Shown here in pieces: positions 24,317-59,104 of a DNA stretch of 64,000 nt. Under the pieces are notes generated by a model, which did not search any database, was not told the origin of the DNA, and saw only the letters and a program-made list of their open reading frames with translations. Every line of letters begins with the position of its first letter. Position 1 is the first letter of the stretch. The stretch is from the NCBI GenBank assembly GCA_017484205.1, contig JAFUTO010000032.1, positions 77,027 through 141,026 on the forward strand, read 5' to 3'. The position numbers and the translations under genes are program-made. This stretch comes from Bacilli bacterium (GTDB lineage Bacteria > Bacillota_I > Bacilli_A > RF39 > UBA660).

Positions 24317-24445
24317 TGGAGTAATCTTTTCAATTCCACCCATATATGGTTGCAATACCTTAGGTACATTAACTGAACCATCTTCATTATAGTTATTTTC
24401 AATTAAAGCAATTAATCCTCTTGGAGTAGCTACTACAGTATTTCT
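24308..24445 (-). pseudogene. serS: displaced 3-prime fragment of seryl-tRNA synthetase (last ~45 codons)
   Basis: [37 protein letters not shown] matches the SerRS C-terminus (..A.gRtliAilENyQ.eDGSv.iPevLrPYMGG.e.I). No upstream serS sequence follows; the frame runs into the recombinase gene instead. Confidence 0.7.
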
Positions 24446-26246
24446 CGGTGTTGCAATTTGCACCAAAGGAGTCGGATTTGATACTATCATTCTGATCAAC
24501 TTCTTTCTTATTCACTTGTATAATTTTTTCCTCTTCAGAGGAAGCTGAAGATTGTTGCTTTTTTATTTCTTCAGCATATTTGTCTATAACGGTTTGTTTG
24601 CTATATGATTTACGGGGTAATGCTTGTTTTACTTCTTTGCCATTTCTAAATATGAATTTGATTACATTTGGATTTAACACATCATTTTCATCTTTTTCTC
24701 CGATTATAATTTTGTCTGTGATGCTATTAAACACTACTGAATCAAATCCTGATAAAATATTTTTCTTTTTGAATATGGATTTAAAATCCACAATTCTTTT
24801 TTTAATATCATTTTCATCTTTCATGACAGTTTTGTACTCATCCAATTTTTCTTCAAGTAAAAGAATTTTATTTTTTAATTCTTCACTTTTTTGCACATAT
24901 ATATTTGAGTCTATTATTCCATCTAACTTCATATCTACAAGGTTAGATTCTCTATCTTTGAGAGTGATAATTTGTTCTCTAATATTTGACATTTCCTTAT
25001 CATAGTTGTTTCCTGATAGTATCTCTTCCATTGTATCTAATAATTGATTAATAATTATTGTATGATTCTCACATACACTATTGTATGCTTGAACAAATGC
25101 AGATTCAATTATTGACTCTTTGACATTTCCAATATTTTGACAATAATCATCATTTCTTCTTTGAAATGTTCTACACGCCCAAGCAACTCTTCTAGGTTGA
25201 CCTTCTTTGTGTGGCGACCAAGATCTTCTAATAAACTTTTGACCACAACATCCACAATCTATCTTACTACTAAATGGATACATGTGGCTTTCTTTATTAA
25301 GTTTATTTTTTTCTTTATACTCTCCTGTTCGCTTATCTAACAAAGCATTTGCTTGATCCCAAATTTCTCTTTCTATAATAGGAACATGATGATTCTTTGT
25401 ATAATATTTATCTTTTTCACCATGATTTATTATTTTCTTTTTTGAAATAGGATCACTTGTATAAGTTTTACCAGTTAATAAGTCACCACAATATTTTTCA
25501 TTTCTTATCATTCTTGCAACGACTGTACTTGACCACATCTTGTTAGTTGGACTAGGAATTTTTTTATTATTTAAAGTTCTTGCAATTCTGGCTGTTCCTA
25601 GACCATCTTCAATATATAATCTATATACTTCTCTAACTACTTCAGCTTCTTCTTCACAAATAACTAACTCTTCTTTATCTTGATCATATCTATAACCATA
25701 AGGAGCATAGTGTCCTACTAATTCTCCCCTTTTCATTTTCATTCTTGCTCCAAGTGCTACACTTGAGGATATTGTTGCACTACCTTGTTGAGCAAGTGCT
25801 GATAAGACAGTAAGTAATATTTCACCTTGCATTTCCATAGTGTTTATATTTTCTTCTTCAAAATATACTGCAACACCATGTTCTTTTAATAAACGAATAT
25901 ATTTTAAAATATCTACTGTATTTCTACCGAATCTTGAAATTGATTTAACAAGTATCATATCAATTTTACCTGCTAAAGCATCATCTATCATTCTTTTAAA
26001 ATTTACTCTTTTAAAAACTTGTGTTCCTGAAATAGCTTCATCTGCATAAATATCAACAAATTCCCAATCTTCATTTTGTCTTATCTTTTGCTTATAGTAT
26101 TTTATTTGTGATTCGTAACTGGTCTTTTGTTCTTCAGTACCTGTACTTACACGACAATATGCACACACTCTCAATAATTTTTTTATTAGACCTTTTATGC
26201 CATGTGCTTTTTTTGGATTAGCTGCTATAACTTTAACATTACCCAA
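24399..26246 (-). CDS. large serine recombinase (integrase of the ICE)
   Basis: Catalytic [11 protein letters not shown]...[20 protein letters not shown], the recombinase domain, zinc ribbon (CGCCGQKF...WACR) and a long coiled coil. TTG start after GGAG. The last ~20 codons run across the att junction into serS sequence, so the exact C-terminus is junction-derived. Confidence 0.9.
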
Positions 26247-27369: not shown

Positions 27370-28104
27370 CTAGTATTTTTCAAGAATTCCATGAATAAAA
27401 TATCTATCATTTTTTCTCCAATTTCCTTCTCTGGAACATGAATATAAAGTAATAATTTTATCCTTAGTGGAATCTACTTCAATATTTGTATTATAATTAC
27501 TTTTTGATATTACCAAATCTAAATAGTTTCTATAATCTTCTAAAGAACTATATTTTTGATTATAAGATTCTGAATCTGTGTCTGCAACATAGGCACTAAA
27601 TATATTGACATTATAATTTCCATTAGGAGTATATAATTTAAATGAGGGATGTTCTTTATAAAAATTATAATCCATGTATTTATATACTTCTCCAAACATA
27701 GAGCCATCCTTAGTGTGATGACCATATATAAAGGTATTATAATCTGTAAAATCTCTTGTTGAATTGAAATCCATAAAAATACTCCCAAAGCCACTCCATT
27801 TTTTATCAAACGAATGGTTTAAATAAAAAGAATTATTCTTTCCTTGTACAATTGGATAATTAATTTGTGTTCCTTCAATTACTATCCATCCAACAATATC
27901 TGGATTGATTTTTTCCAATTCAGAAAAATCAACTGTGAATTCTGGTTCATTGGATGGAATGTCAGGAATATCTATTAATTCAATTAATTCCTCTTTTATA
28001 TCTGCTGCATCTTTTTCTTCTTTGAAAATTTTGTATACATTAAATGCACAATATATCAAAGAAGATATTAATACTAATAATAAAAGTATTTTTATCTTTT
28101 TCAT
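27370..28104 (-). CDS. srtB: class B sortase
   Basis: N-terminal TM; IVGWIVIEGTQINYPIVQG, FIYGHH (catalytic His), TLYSCS (TLxTC Cys motif) and a downstream Arg (NDRYF); SrtB-like length. Confidence 0.8.
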   Translation of the reverse strand: MKKIKILLLLVLISSLIYCAFNVYKIFKEEKDAADIKEELIELIDIPDIPSNEPEFTVDFSELEKINPDIVGWIVIEGTQINYPIVQGKNNSFYLNHSFDKKWSGFGSIFMDFNSTRDFTDYNTFIYGHHTKDGSMFGEVYKYMDYNFYKEHPSFKLYTPNGNYNVNIFSAYVADTDSESYNQKYSSLEDYRNYLDLVISKSNYNTNIEVDSTKDKIITLYSCSREGNWRKNDRYFIHGILEKY

Positions 28105-29927: not shown

Positions 29928-30520
29928 GGTTCTTTATTTATACTATTTACTTTTTCTACAAGAAAATCTATTTTATCTGATATGGTTTCATATTTATTAC
30001 CATAGCAAAATTCCATTTCTATATTTTCGTTGATTATAGCTTTAAAAGTATTATAAATATCATTCATATTAGTAACTTTAATTGAATGTATCTTAATATC
30101 AAATGATTCAAATAAACGCTTATAAAATTTTTCAAAATCTTTTTCTGTAAAATTTTCTAATGGCATAAGACTTTTAAAACTAACATTAAACTCTGAACCA
30201 ACATTTCTAATTTTTAAAAATCTATTGTTCCATAAATCCATCATTTTTTCTTTATCATACTCTTTAAATAAAAAAATAAAAGTTCCTGTATCTCTTGAAT
30301 TAACACAATTGGTATGATCAATAATTGTTTCGTACTTTCCTTCATCTTGCACTATAATTCTATTACCTGCTTTTAACTTATTTACAATATTCATATATTT
30401 AGGATTATGTAAATCCCTAGGAAAATACTCATATATTCGTAAATAGTGTATAATTGCTTCATTCAAATTATCCCATACATCTAAATTTTTATTTATAAAC
30501 ACATATATAAAATTATTCAT
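29906..30520 (-). CDS. hypothetical ICE accessory protein, acidic tail ...PEEEIEK
   Basis: ORF track; the 3-prime end plus downstream SD is the 33-nt repeat shared with 38322-38354. Confidence 0.55.
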   Translation of the reverse strand: MNNFIYVFINKNLDVWDNLNEAIIHYLRIYEYFPRDLHNPKYMNIVNKLKAGNRIIVQDEGKYETIIDHTNCVNSRDTGTFIFLFKEYDKEKMMDLWNNRFLKIRNVGSEFNVSFKSLMPLENFTEKDFEKFYKRLFESFDIKIHSIKVTNMNDIYNTFKAIINENIEMEFCYGNKYETISDKIDFLVEKVNSINKEPEEEIEK

Positions 30521-31254
30521 TTTTCTATTTCCTCCTCTATTTCATTTTCTATATTTTTTTCTAAATCTTCGCAGTAATTTTTTCTATTAATATTTACAAC
30601 AGGGATAAGATCTTTATCAGAAAATAATTTCATTAATGCCTCTACACCATTTTGCTGTTTATATAACATTTCCTCTCTATATAGTGGAAATACTTGATAA
30701 AAATTAATTCTACCTTTATCTGGTAATGTTAAATCCAAATACTCATAATCTTTATTCAAAGCATTAAGTAAAAGTGTACTAGATAACTTTGTATTACTTG
30801 CAAATGGTTTTGTAGCCTTTTCATCTTCTGAAAAAGAATGTCCAAATCCTATCCATGAATCTTCCATTATTGGTGTTCTAGCAATATTTTTTATTTGACT
30901 TATAACCCATCCATTCTCTTCTTTTTCAAAATCAAAATTCCAATCTGATGGTAAATACATAATTAATTCTGCTCTGTCCAATCCTTCGTCTTTAATAATA
31001 TCTGGAACATTCATTTTATAAGCACCTAATCCTCTAGTAACTAACTTATAAAAATTATTTTTTGAATCAGGTGGAATTATCAATATATCCAAATGAACAT
31101 CAGGTGAATATAGTTCATGATAAACCATATCAAACTCACCAATATTATCTTTTATATATTCTTCGTATAATTTTATATCACTAGCATTGTATACATATTT
31201 TGGTGGTTCTTGTAAACCTTTCAAATAATAATTCATTTTTTTAGTAAAACTCAA
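30517..31254 (-). CDS. SUFU-like (Imm-SUFU type) protein, acidic tail ...IEEEIEK
   Basis: YHELYSPDVHLDILIIPPDSKNNFYKLVTRGLGAYKMNVP...AELIMYLPSDWNF...WVISQIKNIARTPIMEDSWIGFGHSF resembles the bacterial Suppressor-of-fused family (h.D....p......lvT.GmS...m...EL...lp..W......W....l...a......w...GH). Confidence 0.45.
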   Translation of the reverse strand: MSFTKKMNYYLKGLQEPPKYVYNASDIKLYEEYIKDNIGEFDMVYHELYSPDVHLDILIIPPDSKNNFYKLVTRGLGAYKMNVPDIIKDEGLDRAELIMYLPSDWNFDFEKEENGWVISQIKNIARTPIMEDSWIGFGHSFSEDEKATKPFASNTKLSSTLLLNALNKDYEYLDLTLPDKGRINFYQVFPLYREEMLYKQQNGVEALMKLFSDKDLIPVVNINRKNYCEDLEKNIENEIEEEIEK

Positions 31255-34262: not shown

Positions 34263-34264
34263 AT

Positions 34265-34420
34265 TTGCTCCTTTCTTACTTCAGTAGAAAGCACCCCTTA
34301 CAGAGTATAGAAATATAATCTATCAAGCATGGTGTTGACACACCCCTAAGCTTGTTAGGGAATGTCCCTAAAACCCACTAAGTAGTCGCTGACAGTTAGT
34401 AGAATTTTTTTCAAAAATTA
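34265..34420. promoter_or_regulatory. candidate oriT plus promoter of the MOB operon
   Basis: The only GC-enriched non-coding stretch of the element. Inverted repeats TTAGGGA-atg-TCCCTAA (34365-34381) and GGTGT-tgac-ACACC (34331-34344). Direct repeat CACCCCT(T/A)A (34292-34300, 34341-34349). Minus-strand TTGATA-17-TATACT promoter. Directly upstream of the MOB genes. Confidence 0.4.
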
Positions 34421-34789: not shown

Positions 34790-35093
34790 GAGGGTTTCCT
34801 AATTCTTTTCCATTGTTATACCAATCATAGAAATCATCTACTGATAATGATTTTATTTGGTCAATTGTTATATTTTTTTCTTCATAAACTTCATTTGCAA
34901 GTGATTGTCCTATTGATATTGGATCTGTATAATCTCCATGAACTTCTGAACACTTTTTTATCAATAATTCTAACTCTTCTTTTGGAATATCATTTTTAAC
35001 ATTTGTCAAACCAATATAAAAGCAATAATCATAAATATTATAATCATCAAATGATGCTGAATATTCTTTTATTTTTTCAAAAGATTCTATCAT
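34752..35093 (-). CDS. hypothetical ICE accessory protein, acidic tail ...EIEDIDEREVD
   Basis: ORF track; ATGA-type overlap with ArdC. Confidence 0.5.
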   Translation of the reverse strand: MIESFEKIKEYSASFDDYNIYDYCFYIGLTNVKNDIPKEELELLIKKCSEVHGDYTDPISIGQSLANEVYEEKNITIDQIKSLSVDDFYDWYNNGKELGNPLEIEDIDEREVD

Positions 35094-36037
35094 ATATCCA
35101 TCTCCATTTCTTGTTCTATTTCGTTTATTTGAACTTTTTCTTTTTTAATACTATTTTCTTCTAAATAATCTACAATTTTGTTAGCATCTGTTATTGCATT
35201 AAACAATTCTTGTGGATTATTTTTTAATATTTCTAACCAATTCTTTACATAACTTTTATGATTATCTAAATGCCTTTTATCCTCTTCCAAATGAAACTTT
35301 TGCATTAAAAAAGAAGAACTAATTTCTGCTCTTAATTCTTCTTTGGCATAGCCTTCAGTTCCAAAATGGTCTTTCATATTTCTTGATAATCTTGATTCAT
35401 GTCCTGTTGAATGAGCTAATTCGTGAAGTTGTGTAGCATAATAAGAATTACTTGTTTTAAAAGTATTTGATGGTGGCAAAACAACTATATCTTTTGAAGG
35501 ACTATAATAAGCATTTTCTCCTTCTTCTTTATATCCAACGCCTATATTATCAATTATATTTTGAATATAATCATTACTAATAATTTCTTGTTTTTGTTCT
35601 GTTTTATCATTAACCAATCCATCAACTAAATCTCCATTGAATACTGTATAACTCATTTTACTTATTTTAAATTCTTTTTCTTTTTCAGGATTTTCTTCAA
35701 TAATTTTATTATATTCTTCAAAACTTATAATCTTATTATCTTTTTTATTTTTCATTGCCCACCATTCAACTGGTACACCTTTACCTTTTGCTGAACCAAT
35801 AAATTTCCAATGCTTTTTTCCCATTTGATTAAATGTAATCCATCTATTATCTTTATATCCTCTTTTATAAGCAATGTATGATAAATATAAATTATTTACA
35901 CCTCTATATTTTATTCCAGAAATAGCATTTTCAGGAATAGAAGTCTTCCACATTTGCTCCCATGGAATGTTTCCTTCCTCTAAACTTTTTATATACATAT
36001 CAATTAAATCTTGTCTAGTTTTTGGAAGTTTACTCAT
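35090..36037 (-). CDS. ardC: ArdC-like antirestriction protein (ssDNA-binding N-domain + zincin metalloprotease)
   Basis: N-terminal IPWEQMW...YRGVNNLYL...RWITFNQ (DUF1738/ArdC-N) and C-terminal HELAHSTGHESRLSR (HExxH). Tail ...EIEQEMEMDI. Confidence 0.8.
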   Translation of the reverse strand: MSKLPKTRQDLIDMYIKSLEEGNIPWEQMWKTSIPENAISGIKYRGVNNLYLSYIAYKRGYKDNRWITFNQMGKKHWKFIGSAKGKGVPVEWWAMKNKKDNKIISFEEYNKIIEENPEKEKEFKISKMSYTVFNGDLVDGLVNDKTEQKQEIISNDYIQNIIDNIGVGYKEEGENAYYSPSKDIVVLPPSNTFKTSNSYYATQLHELAHSTGHESRLSRNMKDHFGTEGYAKEELRAEISSSFLMQKFHLEEDKRHLDNHKSYVKNWLEILKNNPQELFNAITDANKIVDYLEENSIKKEKVQINEIEQEMEMDI

Positions 36038-36974
36038 ATTCTATTTCATCCATTTCTTGTTCTTGAGCTATCTCTTTATCTGTCATTTCATAAAATATAG
36101 GAATTGTAATTTCGTTAAATAAATCTTTATATACATACTTATTTTCATTAACTATAAATATATCTGACTCACTATCTTTTAATATTTCTCTAATATCTAT
36201 CATTCTTCTTATATCTCTTGATAACCTAGAAATATTAACAGAATATAGATCTAAAGTTTTATTATTTTTTATATCCTCTAATGCTTTTCCAAATGCTTTT
36301 TCATGATTTTTTAATCCTGAACATCTATCAAAATATATTCTTATTAATTCAGTATTTCCTTTAGCATTTTGATTAATAGAATACAAACATTTATCAATTT
36401 GGTTTTTTATAGCAATCATAGATTCACCTTGAACATTATCTACACGACAATAAATTGAATATAATTTATTATCTTTATTTTGTTCCCAAATCATATCTAA
36501 AACTTCATCTACTGCTTCCTTTAAAGAATCTGAATCCATTACATCATCATATTCTATTTCACCATCTTTATTATAAAAAGACAATTCAAACCAGTTATTA
36601 TTATCAATATCTAGTTCATATAATTCGTGTTTTTCGTTTAATATATCTAATAATTCATTATCATCTTTGATATATAATGACATCTCATCTTTAAATGCTC
36701 CAACTTCATTTTTATCTTTAACATGAGCAATTAAATTTCCTGCTTTTATTTGTTCACCATCAGGCGTTATATAATCTTTTTTTGCAATTAAATCACAAGA
36801 TACTATTCCTCTAGCAACAATTTTATATTCACCTTCTGAAGACTTTATACTTGCTACTTCTCCACCATACCAGAAAACATTATCATGATTTGGTTCTTCA
36901 TTTTCTTGAATTTTTATATCAACATTTAATCTTGTATATCCGTTTGGTGATATTTTTCCACGAACTAAATTCAT
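36030..36974 (-). CDS. two-domain protein: unknown N-domain + resolvase-like catalytic domain with Ser-to-Asp substitution, no DNA-binding domain
   Basis: YSIYCRVDNVQGES...RIYFDRCSGLKNHEKAFGKALEDIKNNKTLDLYSVNISRLSRDIRRMIDIREILKDSESDIFIVNEN aligns with gamma-delta-type resolvase (YaRVSt.qQ...ifsDk.SG....Rp.l..ll......D.lvv..lDRLgRd......i...l...gv.f). The nucleophile position reads D. Tail ...EQEMDEIEYE. Confidence 0.5.
   Translation of the reverse strand: MNLVRGKISPNGYTRLNVDIKIQENEEPNHDNVFWYGGEVASIKSSEGEYKIVARGIVSCDLIAKKDYITPDGEQIKAGNLIAHVKDKNEVGAFKDEMSLYIKDDNELLDILNEKHELYELDIDNNNWFELSFYNKDGEIEYDDVMDSDSLKEAVDEVLDMIWEQNKDNKLYSIYCRVDNVQGESMIAIKNQIDKCLYSINQNAKGNTELIRIYFDRCSGLKNHEKAFGKALEDIKNNKTLDLYSVNISRLSRDIRRMIDIREILKDSESDIFIVNENKYVYKDLFNEITIPIFYEMTDKEIAQEQEMDEIEYE
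36034..36064 (-). repeat. 31-nt gene-junction repeat (copy 1) spanning ...EQEMDEIEY and the ATG of ardC
   Basis: Plus strand TCATATTCTATTTCATCCATTTCTTGTTCTT is identical to 58713-58743. Confidence 0.85.
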
Positions 36975-37189
36975 TATTTATCTCCTAATATTTTAGTATC
37001 AAGATCTTGTTGCATTTGATAGATTTTTTCTTGTTGTTTTTTATAATCATATAATACTTTTAACTGTTTATCATAATCGGATATTACAACATTAATAGCA
37101 TCTATTTTATCTAGTTCCTTCTTCTTTAGTGCTTCTAACTTATCAATTTTTTTCTCTAATGGTTTATTCAAAATTAATTCTCCTTTCAT
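36974..37189 (-). CDS. hypothetical coiled-coil protein (71 aa)
   Basis: ORF track; overlaps neighbours at both ends (translational coupling). Confidence 0.45.
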   Translation of the reverse strand: MKGELILNKPLEKKIDKLEALKKKELDKIDAINVVISDYDKQLKVLYDYKKQQEKIYQMQQDLDTKILGDK

Positions 37190-37743
37190 ATTTCTAATTC
37201 ATATTCTTCATCAATATTATTTAATTCAAAAGATTTATCTGTTTCTTTATAACAATTATCAAGAATCCATTTAAAATTTTTTGAAATATTTTCATCTTCT
37301 CTAAGTAATAATCCTTGCCATATTCCTTTAATATGATTTATTCCATTTAAAAACTTTATTCCTGTTCCTCCTGCCTCTTTCCAATCAAGAAGATTCTTTG
37401 TATGGTCATCAATTAAATAATCAAATGAAGTAATTTTACTAGGTAAATATTTATATTTAATATCACCATAAGGAACAAAAATTCTCTTTTCAATTGGTAA
37501 CTCTGGAAGATATTTATTTAACCAATTATTTTTTTCTTTTAAAGCATAATCACTATCACTTAAAAAAGAAGAAAGAATATAAATATCCTTTCCTTCTCTA
37601 ATAAGTTTTTTAGTTTCTTCTAATATATAATTGTTTGGTTTTAATGATTCATAATAACCTTTTTGATATAATTCATTATTTGATTGAATATTTTTCCATT
37701 CGGCAAGAGTACCGTCCATATCAATGAAAATTCTTGTTTTCAT
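37186..37743 (-). CDS. HAD-superfamily 5-prime(3-prime)-deoxyribonucleotidase-like phosphatase
   Basis: IFIDMDGTLAEW (DxDG.L motif I), ILSS (motif II), IDDHTKNL (motif III/IV region); size and pattern as NT5C-type dNMP nucleotidases. Tail ...DEEYELEI. Confidence 0.6.
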   Translation of the reverse strand: MKTRIFIDMDGTLAEWKNIQSNNELYQKGYYESLKPNNYILEETKKLIREGKDIYILSSFLSDSDYALKEKNNWLNKYLPELPIEKRIFVPYGDIKYKYLPSKITSFDYLIDDHTKNLLDWKEAGGTGIKFLNGINHIKGIWQGLLLREDENISKNFKWILDNCYKETDKSFELNNIDEEYELEI

Positions 37744-37745
37744 GA

Positions 37746-37949
37746 TTATTTATCTAATTCAACTTCATCTTTTAATGGAACTTTTTCATAATCAATATAG
37801 CTCTCAATATAACTTTCAATAGAGTTTTTTAAATCTCCAATTGTTTCGCATTTATATTTAGTACCTGATGAAGACGGAGTGCCAATATAAACAGTTTTTT
37901 CTTCTTTAGAAAATACTATTTCAAGTTCAATATCATCTTTTATAATCAT
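37746..37949 (-). CDS. hypothetical ICE accessory protein (67 aa), tail ...DEVELDK
   Basis: ORF track; ATGA overlap with ssb. Confidence 0.45.
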   Translation of the reverse strand: MIIKDDIELEIVFSKEEKTVYIGTPSSSGTKYKCETIGDLKNSIESYIESYIDYEKVPLKDEVELDK

Positions 37950-38317
37950 TTATCAATTTCCTCCTCTACTTCATCATTTAAAATAGTTTTATCTTGATTT
38001 TTGCTGTGAGATAGATAATCAATATTATCAACAACAATATCAGTATATTTAGTTTTTTGACCATCTTTTTCTACTAATCTAGTTTGTATTGATGCTTCTA
38101 TAAGAACTAAATCACCTTTTAATAAATGGTCTGATTTTTTTACTGCTCTTTCATTCCATGCTGTTAAATCTATAAAGTTTGCTTCGTGTTCACCATTTTC
38201 ATTTGTGTATGGTTTTGGTACAGCAATAGTAATACTAGCATAATTTTTTCCTGCTTCAGTTTGTTTTAATTCTGGTTTTGATACCATTCTTCCTACAAGT
38301 AATGTTTGATTTAACAT
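37946..38317 (-). CDS. ssb: single-stranded DNA-binding protein with non-canonical acidic tip
   Basis: MLNQTLLVGRMVSKPELKQTEAGKNYASITIAV...FIDLTAWNERA......KGDLVLIEASIQTR is an SSB OB fold. The C-terminus is ...DEVEEEIDK instead of the usual D-D-D-(I/L)-P-F. Confidence 0.85.
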   Translation of the reverse strand: MLNQTLLVGRMVSKPELKQTEAGKNYASITIAVPKPYTNENGEHEANFIDLTAWNERAVKKSDHLLKGDLVLIEASIQTRLVEKDGQKTKYTDIVVDNIDYLSHSKNQDKTILNDEVEEEIDK

Positions 38318-42201: not shown

Positions 42202-42219
42202 TGTCTACAATAGTAGACA
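42202..42219. promoter_or_regulatory. palindromic operator-like site TGTCTAC-AATA-GTAGACA (copy 1)
   Basis: Perfect 7-4-7 inverted repeat ~20 nt upstream of the XRE regulator start. A 23-nt block including it is identical to the one at 50032-50049. Confidence 0.45.
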
Positions 42220-57687: not shown

Positions 57688-58716
57688 TTACCTTTCCAAT
57701 TCACAATCATCTAATTCAACTTGAGATTGAATATTTTCAACCATTTTATTAAACATAACTTCATCTTTTTCTATTGCAATGCTATTTCTATTAGTATTTA
57801 AACATGCAACAACAAAATTACCACTACCTGCATATTGATCTAAAAGAGTTTCAAAAGGATTTGAAATATATGAAATAATACTTTCTAAAAGTTCTACTGG
57901 TTTTTCTGCTTCCATAACCTTATCATTTTTCCCTCTTGGTTGATAATCAAATGTTGTTGGCAGCATACCATTAGTCCCCTTCATATAACATACATCAAAT
58001 CCTTTATTAATTAGAATATCTCTTACTTCATAAGAAGTTTTACCTTTAATATCAATATTATTTTTAGTTGCTATTTCTATATTCTTCTTAGCATCTAATT
58101 TTAATGCTCTAGGTTCTCCTTTTGAGAAAATCATGACATCTTCCACATTCTTAGATTTTCTTCCTGTATTAGCAACAAAATCGCCTTTTTTCCAAGGAAC
58201 TTTAGCAAAATATTTGAATCCACTTTTAATTGCCATATCCTTAACTTCAAAAAGATATTGATAATTAATTTCAGATTCTTCAGGTAAAAATTCTACAAGA
58301 AAAGCCCCTTCTTTTAAAACTCTTTGTTTTTCTTCAAAATCTTTTTGGTTATATTTAAATAACTCATAGGAAGCAAATTTTCTATTTCCTCCTGTTAATG
58401 CTTTTGATAAATCATACGGATGGTCAGTTATAATTCCATCTATTGAATCATCTGGAATCATAGATAAATCTCTACCATCTCCATTAATAAGTAAGCAATC
58501 ATTTCTATCACCATTAATTTGAGAAGTTACTTTATATACTCCACGAGAAACTTTTTCAAACAATCCCTTTTCAACGCCTTCGTATATTCTTGCTCTTATT
58601 GATTCATTATTTACTTTCATCACAGAATTAACAAGATTTGTTGCTTCTTTAACCGTAAATTGTTCATCATCCAAAAAGTATTGAAATAGATTCATCTGAA
58701 TAGTGTTATCTGTCAT
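57688..58716 (-). CDS. orphan DNA methyltransferase (beta-class N6A/N4C, motif IV before motif I)
   Basis: Motif IV GIITDHPY (DPPY variant), motif I LLDQYAGSGNFVVAC, N-terminal wHTH-like 70 aa. No restriction gene adjacent. Tail ...VELDDCELER. Confidence 0.75.
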   Translation of the reverse strand: MTDNTIQMNLFQYFLDDEQFTVKEATNLVNSVMKVNNESIRARIYEGVEKGLFEKVSRGVYKVTSQINGDRNDCLLINGDGRDLSMIPDDSIDGIITDHPYDLSKALTGGNRKFASYELFKYNQKDFEEKQRVLKEGAFLVEFLPEESEINYQYLFEVKDMAIKSGFKYFAKVPWKKGDFVANTGRKSKNVEDVMIFSKGEPRALKLDAKKNIEIATKNNIDIKGKTSYEVRDILINKGFDVCYMKGTNGMLPTTFDYQPRGKNDKVMEAEKPVELLESIISYISNPFETLLDQYAGSGNFVVACLNTNRNSIAIEKDEVMFNKMVENIQSQVELDDCELER

Positions 58717-59104
58717 ATTCTATTTCATCCATTTCTTGTTCTTTGTCTTTTTTTAAACATGGTTCTAATAATTGTTTTAACTTATCGCATAGTTCTTTTT
58801 GATTCTTAAAAGTATATCTTTCATAACTATCATGATAAGCTGTACTATCCACATTCAAATCTAATTGTGCTGTTGTTATTTCCAATTGTCCCCATGAATG
58901 CGTTATCCAAATTCTTTTATTGATAATTTTACTCTCCATAATTATCCATAAAGGTTGATTTGATTCCACATAATTGTTTCTTTCTTTATAAAACCAGTTT
59001 GAATGATCATTTATTTCATCAATATCGGCAGTAAATATCAATTTATAAATATCCCTATATTTAGTTTTATAAATTGCATTTTGTAGATTATAGGTTCTAA
59101 TCAC
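58706..59104 (-). CDS. hypothetical ICE accessory protein, tail ...EQEMDEIEYDR (paralog of 59101..59466)
   Basis: ORF track; shares MIR..NL....KY.D.YK....DID.I.D...Y.FKN.K.L..KL with the upstream ORF. Confidence 0.5.
   Translation of the reverse strand: MIRTYNLQNAIYKTKYRDIYKLIFTADIDEINDHSNWFYKERNNYVESNQPLWIIMESKIINKRIWITHSWGQLEITTAQLDLNVDSTAYHDSYERYTFKNQKELCDKLKQLLEPCLKKDKEQEMDEIEYDR
58713..58743 (-). repeat. 31-nt gene-junction repeat (copy 2) spanning ...EQEMDEIEY and the ATG of the methyltransferase
   Basis: Identical to 36034-36064. Confidence 0.85.

Follow-up and report, generated by a model that had tools for sequence, protein, structure and literature searches.

The locus considered here raises the question of what a serine-recombinase catalytic domain that has lost its nucleophile might be doing in an integrative conjugative element, where it is encoded about 10 kb from the element's own large serine recombinase. 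The element lies in a 64,000-nucleotide stretch of the Bacilli bacterium contig JAFUTO010000032.1 (assembly GCA_017484205.1), referred to below as the window, and the gene in question (36030-36974; features of the window are on the minus strand unless stated otherwise), recognised from the open reading frame (ORF) list, its translation and Pfam, encodes a two-domain protein of 314 amino acids, P0001, in which an acidic N-terminal domain precedes the dead recombinase domain. The protein belongs to a family of 46 clusters with 41-98% identity. We suggest that it is a non-cutting establishment or anti-defence accessory, acting with or beside the anti-restriction protein ArdC and not with the integrase, a reading to which we would assign a probability of roughly one half on the basis of sequence and gene order. 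Because its gene adjoins ardC, help with establishment is considered more likely than control of integration.

A recombinase fold without its nucleophile

Residues 169-305 of P0001 have the serine-recombinase catalytic fold, as seen with both Pfam and structure comparison. The Pfam model PF00239 matches residues 174-297 over model positions 3-120 of 145 (E value 5.3e-10, 40 bits against a cut-off of 23.3), while searches of PHROGs, NCBIfam and PADLOC with the whole protein return weak resolvase-type matches only. A single-sequence phmmer search of the PDB with P0001 gave no match, and a family profile made from 18 relatives was needed to reach its sequences, the best being 3g13, a recombinase from a C. 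difficile conjugative transposon (E 5e-11), together with TP901-1 integrase and TnpX. When residues 165-309 of the AlphaFold model (predicted local distance difference test (pLDDT) 91.8; predicted template modelling score 0.86) are compared with known structures, the 13 chains with a Z score of at least 8 are all serine recombinases (Z 9.0-12.1), and the next, unrelated folds follow at a Z of about 6. The first-pass annotation, made by a model from the DNA letters alone, had already seen a resolvase-type catalytic homologue here, which both the Pfam score and the structural match support; its assignment to the small serine recombinases has to be revised, however, as the closest relatives are the catalytic domains of large serine recombinases.

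With these large enzymes (PF00239; 3g13, 3bvp for TP901-1 integrase and 2mhc for TnpX), P0001 shares a common fold (Z 10.6-11.6, Foldseek E 5e-5) and the colinear motifs Y-x-R, D-x-x-S-G and S-R-L-S-R, and the 'SxSRxxR' variant present in the dead domain is typical of the large-serine-recombinase clade and of the element's own recombinase. Unlike them, it has no nucleophilic serine, recombinase domain or zinc ribbon, its alphaE helix is degenerate, it carries an unrelated acidic domain at its N terminus, and its gene sits in an establishment operon and not at the end of the element. The highest structural similarity (Z 12.1, root-mean-square deviation 2.5 A over 106 residues) is to IS607-type TnpA and MJ0014 proteins (3lhk, 6dgb, 6dgc), in which the catalytic domain is likewise C-terminal to another domain; these proteins keep their serine and have an N-terminal MerR-like DNA-binding domain, whereas the N-terminal domain of P0001 is acidic and unrelated.

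The dead catalytic core itself (residues 169-280; 36135-36470), delimited by Pfam, the PDB profile alignment and the fold, is basic (isoelectric point (pI) 8.8) and retains Y175, R177, D216, S219-G220, R250 and R253, among which we take R177, D216, R250 and R253 to be the equivalents of R8, D36, R68 and R71 of gamma-delta resolvase. The nucleophile is missing: the profile alignment sets Y-C-R-V-D179 on YCRVS of 3g13, YTRVS of TP901-1 integrase and YERLS of TnpX, and a BLASTP alignment with the element's own large serine recombinase (25% identity) gives the same register, YCRVD on YCRVS. The codons at 36432-36452 translate as YCRVDNV, placing Asp179 at 36438-36440 on the column of the nucleophilic serine. 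No helix-turn-helix or other DNA-binding domain is found in P0001, either by Pfam, even at E<=10, or in the model, and the protein ends 10 residues after its last modelled helix. Both the aspartate at the nucleophile position and the lack of a DNA-binding domain had been predicted in the first-pass annotation, and the alignment check on the former has now been run with the outcome that it foresaw.

The loss of catalysis, also claimed there, is supported, and absence of the serine is a trait of the family. Across the 29 relatives that cover the region, the nucleophile column holds Ala in 13, Asp in 6, Asn in 4, Gly in 3, Ser in 2 and Gln in 1, and it changes even over short distances, with Ala replacing Asp179 in relatives that are 87% (L037) and 83% (L038) identical to P0001. 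The same 29 sequences, some of them as little as about 30% identical, all have Tyr175 and Arg177, and nearly all have Asp216, Arg250 and Arg253. Over the dead core, pairs with a dS of 0.35 or more give a ratio of nonsynonymous to synonymous substitution rates (dN/dS) of 0.08-0.21, a sign of purifying selection. Because the nucleophile column varies while the Tyr, Arg and Asp residues are kept, and because dN/dS is so low, the domain is best regarded as a maintained pseudo-recombinase under selection and not as part of a decaying gene. Asp179 was also considered as an alternative nucleophile or a phosphomimic, and was rejected on account of the alanine at this position in L037 and L038.

The first-pass annotation had further described the domain as dimerisation-competent, which finds no such backing. 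The alphaE-like helical segment (residues 281-305; 36060-36134), defined from pLDDT, conservation and structural alignment to alphaE of 3bvp and 3guv, is modelled as a helix at 281-304 with a pLDDT of only 62-65. Conservation is also at its lowest in this segment, where the top residue of a column has a mean frequency of 0.44, compared with 0.56 in the core and 0.70 in the N-terminal domain. As judged from these comparisons, P0001 is a pseudoenzyme that keeps the phosphate-contacting residues of its ancestors and has lost their chemistry, their DNA-binding domain and a recognisable oligomerisation helix. The dead domain also occurs in other arrangements, namely in tandem forms of 449-475 residues that have a second degenerate PF00239 domain in front (27-31 bits), giving the order Res*-N-Res*, and as stand-alone domains of 145 residues with Ala at the nucleophile column (P0096 and P0132); a search with P0132 matched itself only.

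The acidic N-terminal domain

The most conserved part of P0001 is the N-terminal domain (residues 16-168; 36471-36929), which the models, its charge and its conservation define as a beta-rich and very acidic unit. It is folded with a pLDDT above 95 throughout, and carries the motifs W35-Y-G-G, A54-x-G56, D87-K, D105 and N126-N127-W128. Its pI is 4.2 with a net charge of -24 over 153 residues, and acidity is general in the family, 91 members having a median pI of 4.46 and a median net charge of -16. The domain has no match in Pfam, NCBIfam, PHROG or PADLOC, so that the first-pass description of an unknown N-terminal domain of some 170 residues stands, now as a separate and confidently folded one. 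A profile of the domain found no match among PDB sequences (best E 0.84), and fold searches stayed at the level of noise, with a best Z of 6.2 in VIA-align and nothing in the PDB at E<=0.001 with Foldseek; its structural relatives come from BFVD only, and are uncharacterised proteins of uncultured phages (E 7e-5 to 1e-3).

The domain is widely distributed as a module. An exhaustive HMMER search returned 198 cluster representatives at E<=0.001, most of which consist of the domain alone, in proteins of 140-190 residues. One such protein is encoded on a phage-like contig, with many small genes around it, next to a diversity-generating retroelement (bAvd and reverse transcriptase, L002:431-2027), and another adjoins a DpnD/PcfM gene. 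In other cases, the domain is fused to GNAT (P0112), NADAR (P0135), YodL (P0138), dUTPase (P0173) or DUF3848 (P0053 and P0179), the fused copies being detected by its profile at E 1e-32 to 1e-55. The NADAR partner is an ADP-ribose-removing domain, and the N-terminal family itself has neither a Pfam model nor names given by the source records. A tblastn search of 72,556 plasmids with P0001 gave no match, and tblastn yielded a single partial match to the N-terminal domain, in the unannotated gut phage record MT837877.1.

This behaviour recalls the polyvalent proteins of phages and conjugative elements, which combine 2 to 15 domains, among them YodL, DUF3848 and LPD modules (Iyer et al. 2017, PMC5512222). 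The N-terminal domain resembles their modules in occurring alone or fused in varying order, in both phage and conjugative-element contexts, but is absent from the Pfam families derived from that work, which does not mention resolvase domains, and P0001 has two domains as against 2 to 15. A second comparison is with ArdA and Ocr, acidic anti-restriction proteins that mimic DNA, to which the domain is alike in its strong negative charge and in its place among anti-restriction genes; no similarity to them was detectable in sequence, or in fold among chains with a Z of at least 4, and DNA mimicry by P0001 is hypothetical. Because this unannotated family is found on phage-like and conjugative-element contigs and joined to several types of enzyme, it is a candidate for anti-defence screening.

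A coupled operon and its synteny with ardC

The P0001 gene is tightly embedded among its neighbours. A Shine-Dalgarno sequence, AGGAG (36982-36986, read directly from the sequence), lies 7 nucleotides 5' of its ATG, which overlaps the stop codon of an upstream ORF of 71 amino acids (36974-37189) as TAATG. This small ORF is translationally coupled on both sides, as its own start overlaps, as ATGA, with the end of the gene before it, which encodes an NT5C-like 5'-nucleotidase of the HAD family (37186-37743; PF06941); ORFs of similar size occupy the same position in L011, L012 and L034. Downstream, the last codons of the P0001 gene, GAA TAT GAG TAA, carry the ATG of ardC (35090-36037), which encodes an ArdC-N single-stranded DNA-binding domain (PF08401) and a zincin metallopeptidase (PF18818), and the stop/start overlap amounts to 8 nucleotides (ATGAGTAA). 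Stop/start overlaps thus run along the genes for NT5C, the 71-residue protein, P0001 and ArdC, and together with the AGGAG they identify the P0001 ORF, proposed as a gene in the first-pass annotation, as a real gene in a tightly coupled operon. A scan for promoters found 72 where 77 were expected, which tells little in DNA so rich in AT. The public annotation of the product, 'recombinase family protein' (MBO5095739.1), is misleading, since P0001 is a non-catalytic derivative of a recombinase domain that is under selection.

The junction with ardC has a further peculiarity. P0001 ends in an acidic tail, QEQEMDEIEYE (36033-36059 by alignment and sequence), of which E-M-D-E-I-E-Y-E is conserved among relatives, and an identical stretch of 31 nucleotides occurs twice in the window, at 36034-36064 and 58713-58743, where none would be expected by chance. 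At each copy it encodes the tail ..EQEMDEIEY of a different upstream protein and supplies the ATG of the next gene, ardC in one case and an N6/N4 methyltransferase gene in the other. Because the junction recurs verbatim and contains the next gene's start, the conservation of the acidic tails may in part reflect nucleotide-level coupling or a cassette-junction element.

The order of genes was followed with hidden Markov models (HMMs) built from the loci in hand, across 13 distinct loci including the window, with L040 and L041 counted as one. The dead-domain gene lies directly upstream of ardC in 11 of them (the window, L011, L012, L013, L034, L035, L036, L037, L038, L039 and L042), usually with a stop/start overlap. 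At two of these, L034 and L035, the gene upstream of ardC encodes a stand-alone dead domain of 145 residues, and a search of both loci found the N-terminal domain nowhere, so that the dead domain is the constant neighbour of ardC and the N-terminal domain an optional one. An NT5C-like gene is present upstream in nine of the 13 loci, the HMM search finding none in L012, L034, L039 and L042. In L001:6609-7988, L013:2-1372 and L035:243-1649 the NT5C-like gene is longer, encoding 456-487 residues with a C-terminal extension of about 280 residues that has no Pfam match. The related loci come from human, goat and mouse guts, in metagenome-assembled genomes of uncultured 'Bacilli' or 'Tenericutes'; L042 (CAYLJU010000008.1), in which a tandem form is followed by ardC, is on a contig binned as Muribaculaceae (Bacteroidota), which may reflect mis-binning or an element that crosses phyla.

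On a larger scale, Pfam matches show that the genes of the element are ordered along the minus strand. They begin with a surface protein, a methyltransferase, a primase, a coupling protein, VirB6-, PrgI- and VirB4-like genes and a CHAP hydrolase, after which come XRE and LPD16 genes and several acidic ORFs, then SSB (37946-38317; PF00436), the NT5C-like gene, the 71-residue ORF, P0001 and ArdC. Two small ORFs, a NikA-like gene and a MobA/VirD2 relaxase follow, and the series closes with a SUFU-like gene, a sortase, a helix-turn-helix gene and the large serine recombinase at the element's end (24399-26246; Resolvase, Recombinase and Zn_ribbon_recom domains in Pfam), whose YCRVS motif is intact. 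The P0001 gene is thus part of a co-directional block with establishment genes (XRE, LPD16, SSB and ArdC), which has the type IV secretion genes on one side and the relaxase operon on the other. An inverted-repeat scan of the gap at 34263-34420 found AT palindromes only, and no origin of transfer (oriT) is claimed there.

Other features of the element and its host may be recorded here. The SUFU-like protein (30517-31254; PF05076, E 1e-35) and the sortase (27370-28104), both encoded between relaxase and integrase, are conserved in the related elements L001/L033, L011 and L034. Where the XRE gene begins there is a perfect palindrome, TGTCTAC-AATA-GTAGACA (42202-42219), which is terminator-like on the plus strand and is a possible operator. 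The host genome is only 1.27 Mb in size, and four large serine recombinase genes on its contigs C13, C20, C27 and C33 (loci L006-L009) suggest that it harbours several integrated elements. When 400 genomes of the host's class were searched with a profile, the only matches outside the window were genuine large serine recombinases.

A proposed role in establishment beside ArdC, and the alternatives

How might a recombinase domain that does not cut serve such an element? In the scheme that we favour, P0001 would share one translationally coupled message with NT5C, the 71-residue protein and ArdC, and would act with or alongside ArdC while the element is becoming established in a new host. The basic dead core would hold a phosphate-bearing partner, either a DNA backbone or a nucleotide, in the Tyr/Arg/Asp pocket that it retains, and the acidic domain, as a module reused widely by phages and conjugative elements, would serve as a decoy or adaptor towards a host protein; each of these two roles is put forward as probable. 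The recipient needs ArdC to overcome restriction (PMC7213743), and in Firmicute plasmids ardC is described as a typical establishment gene whose expression is transient (PMC8708921). P0001 shares a genomic block with an ArdC like those of R388 and the pLS20/p576-family plasmids, with ardC as its coupled downstream neighbour, although the two proteins are unrelated in sequence and fold, and both genes lie among those for SSB, NT5C, LPD16, XRE, the relaxase, the NikA-like protein and type IV secretion. The papers searched mention no resolvase-like partner of ArdC, and literature searches on inactive resolvase domains in conjugative elements, polyvalent proteins, ArdC neighbourhoods and leading regions brought up no description of the P0001 family.

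What the analysis shows is the fold, the missing nucleophile, purifying selection, gene coupling with synteny, and the modular nature of the N-terminal domain; when and where P0001 acts, its link to ArdC, and what the pocket and the acidic domain do are proposals. Several points weigh against this scheme. Binding of P0001 to ArdC, DNA or a ligand is purely hypothetical, and the conserved arginines could be structural only. The loci share one element backbone and are not independent, so that their gene order may be that inherited by a single family of related elements and not a sign of functional coupling; overlaps between genes, for their part, are usual all along this compact operon. The downstream gene is not ardC in L001 and L040/L041, both tandem forms, and a search for a fused dead-domain-ArdC protein or longer fused forms found none, which is weak evidence. 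Any description of the block as the first to be transferred is inferential. A more elaborate version of the scheme, in which the dead domain and ArdC make up a two-part anti-restriction or establishment machine, the pseudo-recombinase holding incoming DNA uncut and the N-terminal domain being a widespread and hitherto overlooked anti-defence module that is also borne by NADAR, GNAT and dUTPase proteins, is tentative and on balance unlikely.

The N-terminal domain might instead be the sole effector, a decoy resembling DNA mimics that acts independently of ArdC against a host DNA-binding defence protein, with the dead domain serving for self-association only. Its superior conservation, its existence alone and in many fusions, the acidity of all 91 members taken together and the existence of Res*-N-Res* tandems are in keeping with this. 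The retention of the dead domain upstream of ardC without any N-terminal domain in L034 and L035 argues, however, that the dead domain has a role of its own, a purely oligomerising one leaves the invariant Tyr/Arg pocket unexplained, and no fold similarity to known DNA mimics was seen, though a missing match is weak evidence; we consider this explanation rather unlikely. Still more doubtful is the proposal of the first-pass annotation that the protein is a directionality factor or inhibitor of the element's recombinase (24399-26246), for which no specific support emerged. In that case, the dead domain would form mixed dimers or tetramers with the recombinase, as a directionality factor, a dominant-negative inhibitor or an immunity factor, and it is indeed of the large-serine-recombinase type (best PDB match 3g13, with TP901-1 and TnpX), its tandem forms with two dead domains suggest mutual pairing, and a large serine recombinase gene in the same orientation lies 8-12 kb downstream in the window, L033, L038, L039, L041, L042 and probably L037, that is, in every related element whose end was visible. 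This co-occurrence does not discriminate between readings because all the elements share one backbone, and the alphaE-like segment, which in real enzymes provides the dimer and tetramer interface, is precisely the part that is least conserved and modelled with low confidence. The dead domain is only 25% identical to the element's own recombinase, and its gene is not beside that recombinase but 10 kb away in the SSB/NT5C/ArdC block, coupled to NT5C and ardC, the latter its constant neighbour. Known directionality factors of large serine recombinases, moreover, bind the C-terminal domains of these enzymes and not the catalytic domain, and to our knowledge the TnpX/TndX-type transposon recombinases need none.

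The remaining explanations turn on the pocket itself. Were it to bind a free nucleotide or a nucleotide-derived signal, P0001 could be a sponge or sensor working with the adjacent NT5C-like nucleotidase, as might be expected from pocket residues that are conserved without a nucleophile, from the NT5C-like gene in nine of 13 loci, and from fusion of the N-terminal domain elsewhere to nucleotide-related enzymes (dUTPase and NADAR). The argument is inferential throughout, NT5C is not found by the HMM search in L012, L034, L039 and L042, and we know of no serine-recombinase domain that binds nucleotides, all of which makes the idea highly improbable. The chance that P0001 is an active recombinase or nuclease with another nucleophile, either Asp179 or the serine found one position earlier in some relatives (Y-C-R-S-A), is close to negligible: the active-site Y, R, D, R and R are kept and two relatives (P0033 and P0036) retain serine at the nucleophile column, but this column is Ala, Asp, Asn, Gly or Gln in 27 of 29 sequences, the preceding position is variable too (V/T/L/I/F/S/C), and the protein has no DNA-binding domain.

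We therefore return to establishment beside ArdC as the favoured role. On that reading, this recombinase-fold pseudoenzyme would have been recruited to the genes by which conjugative elements survive their arrival in a new cell. If P0001 does work with ArdC, an anti-restriction system of still unclear mechanism would gain a further component, and P0001 would also illustrate clearly how the fold of a site-specific recombinase can become that of a pseudoenzyme.

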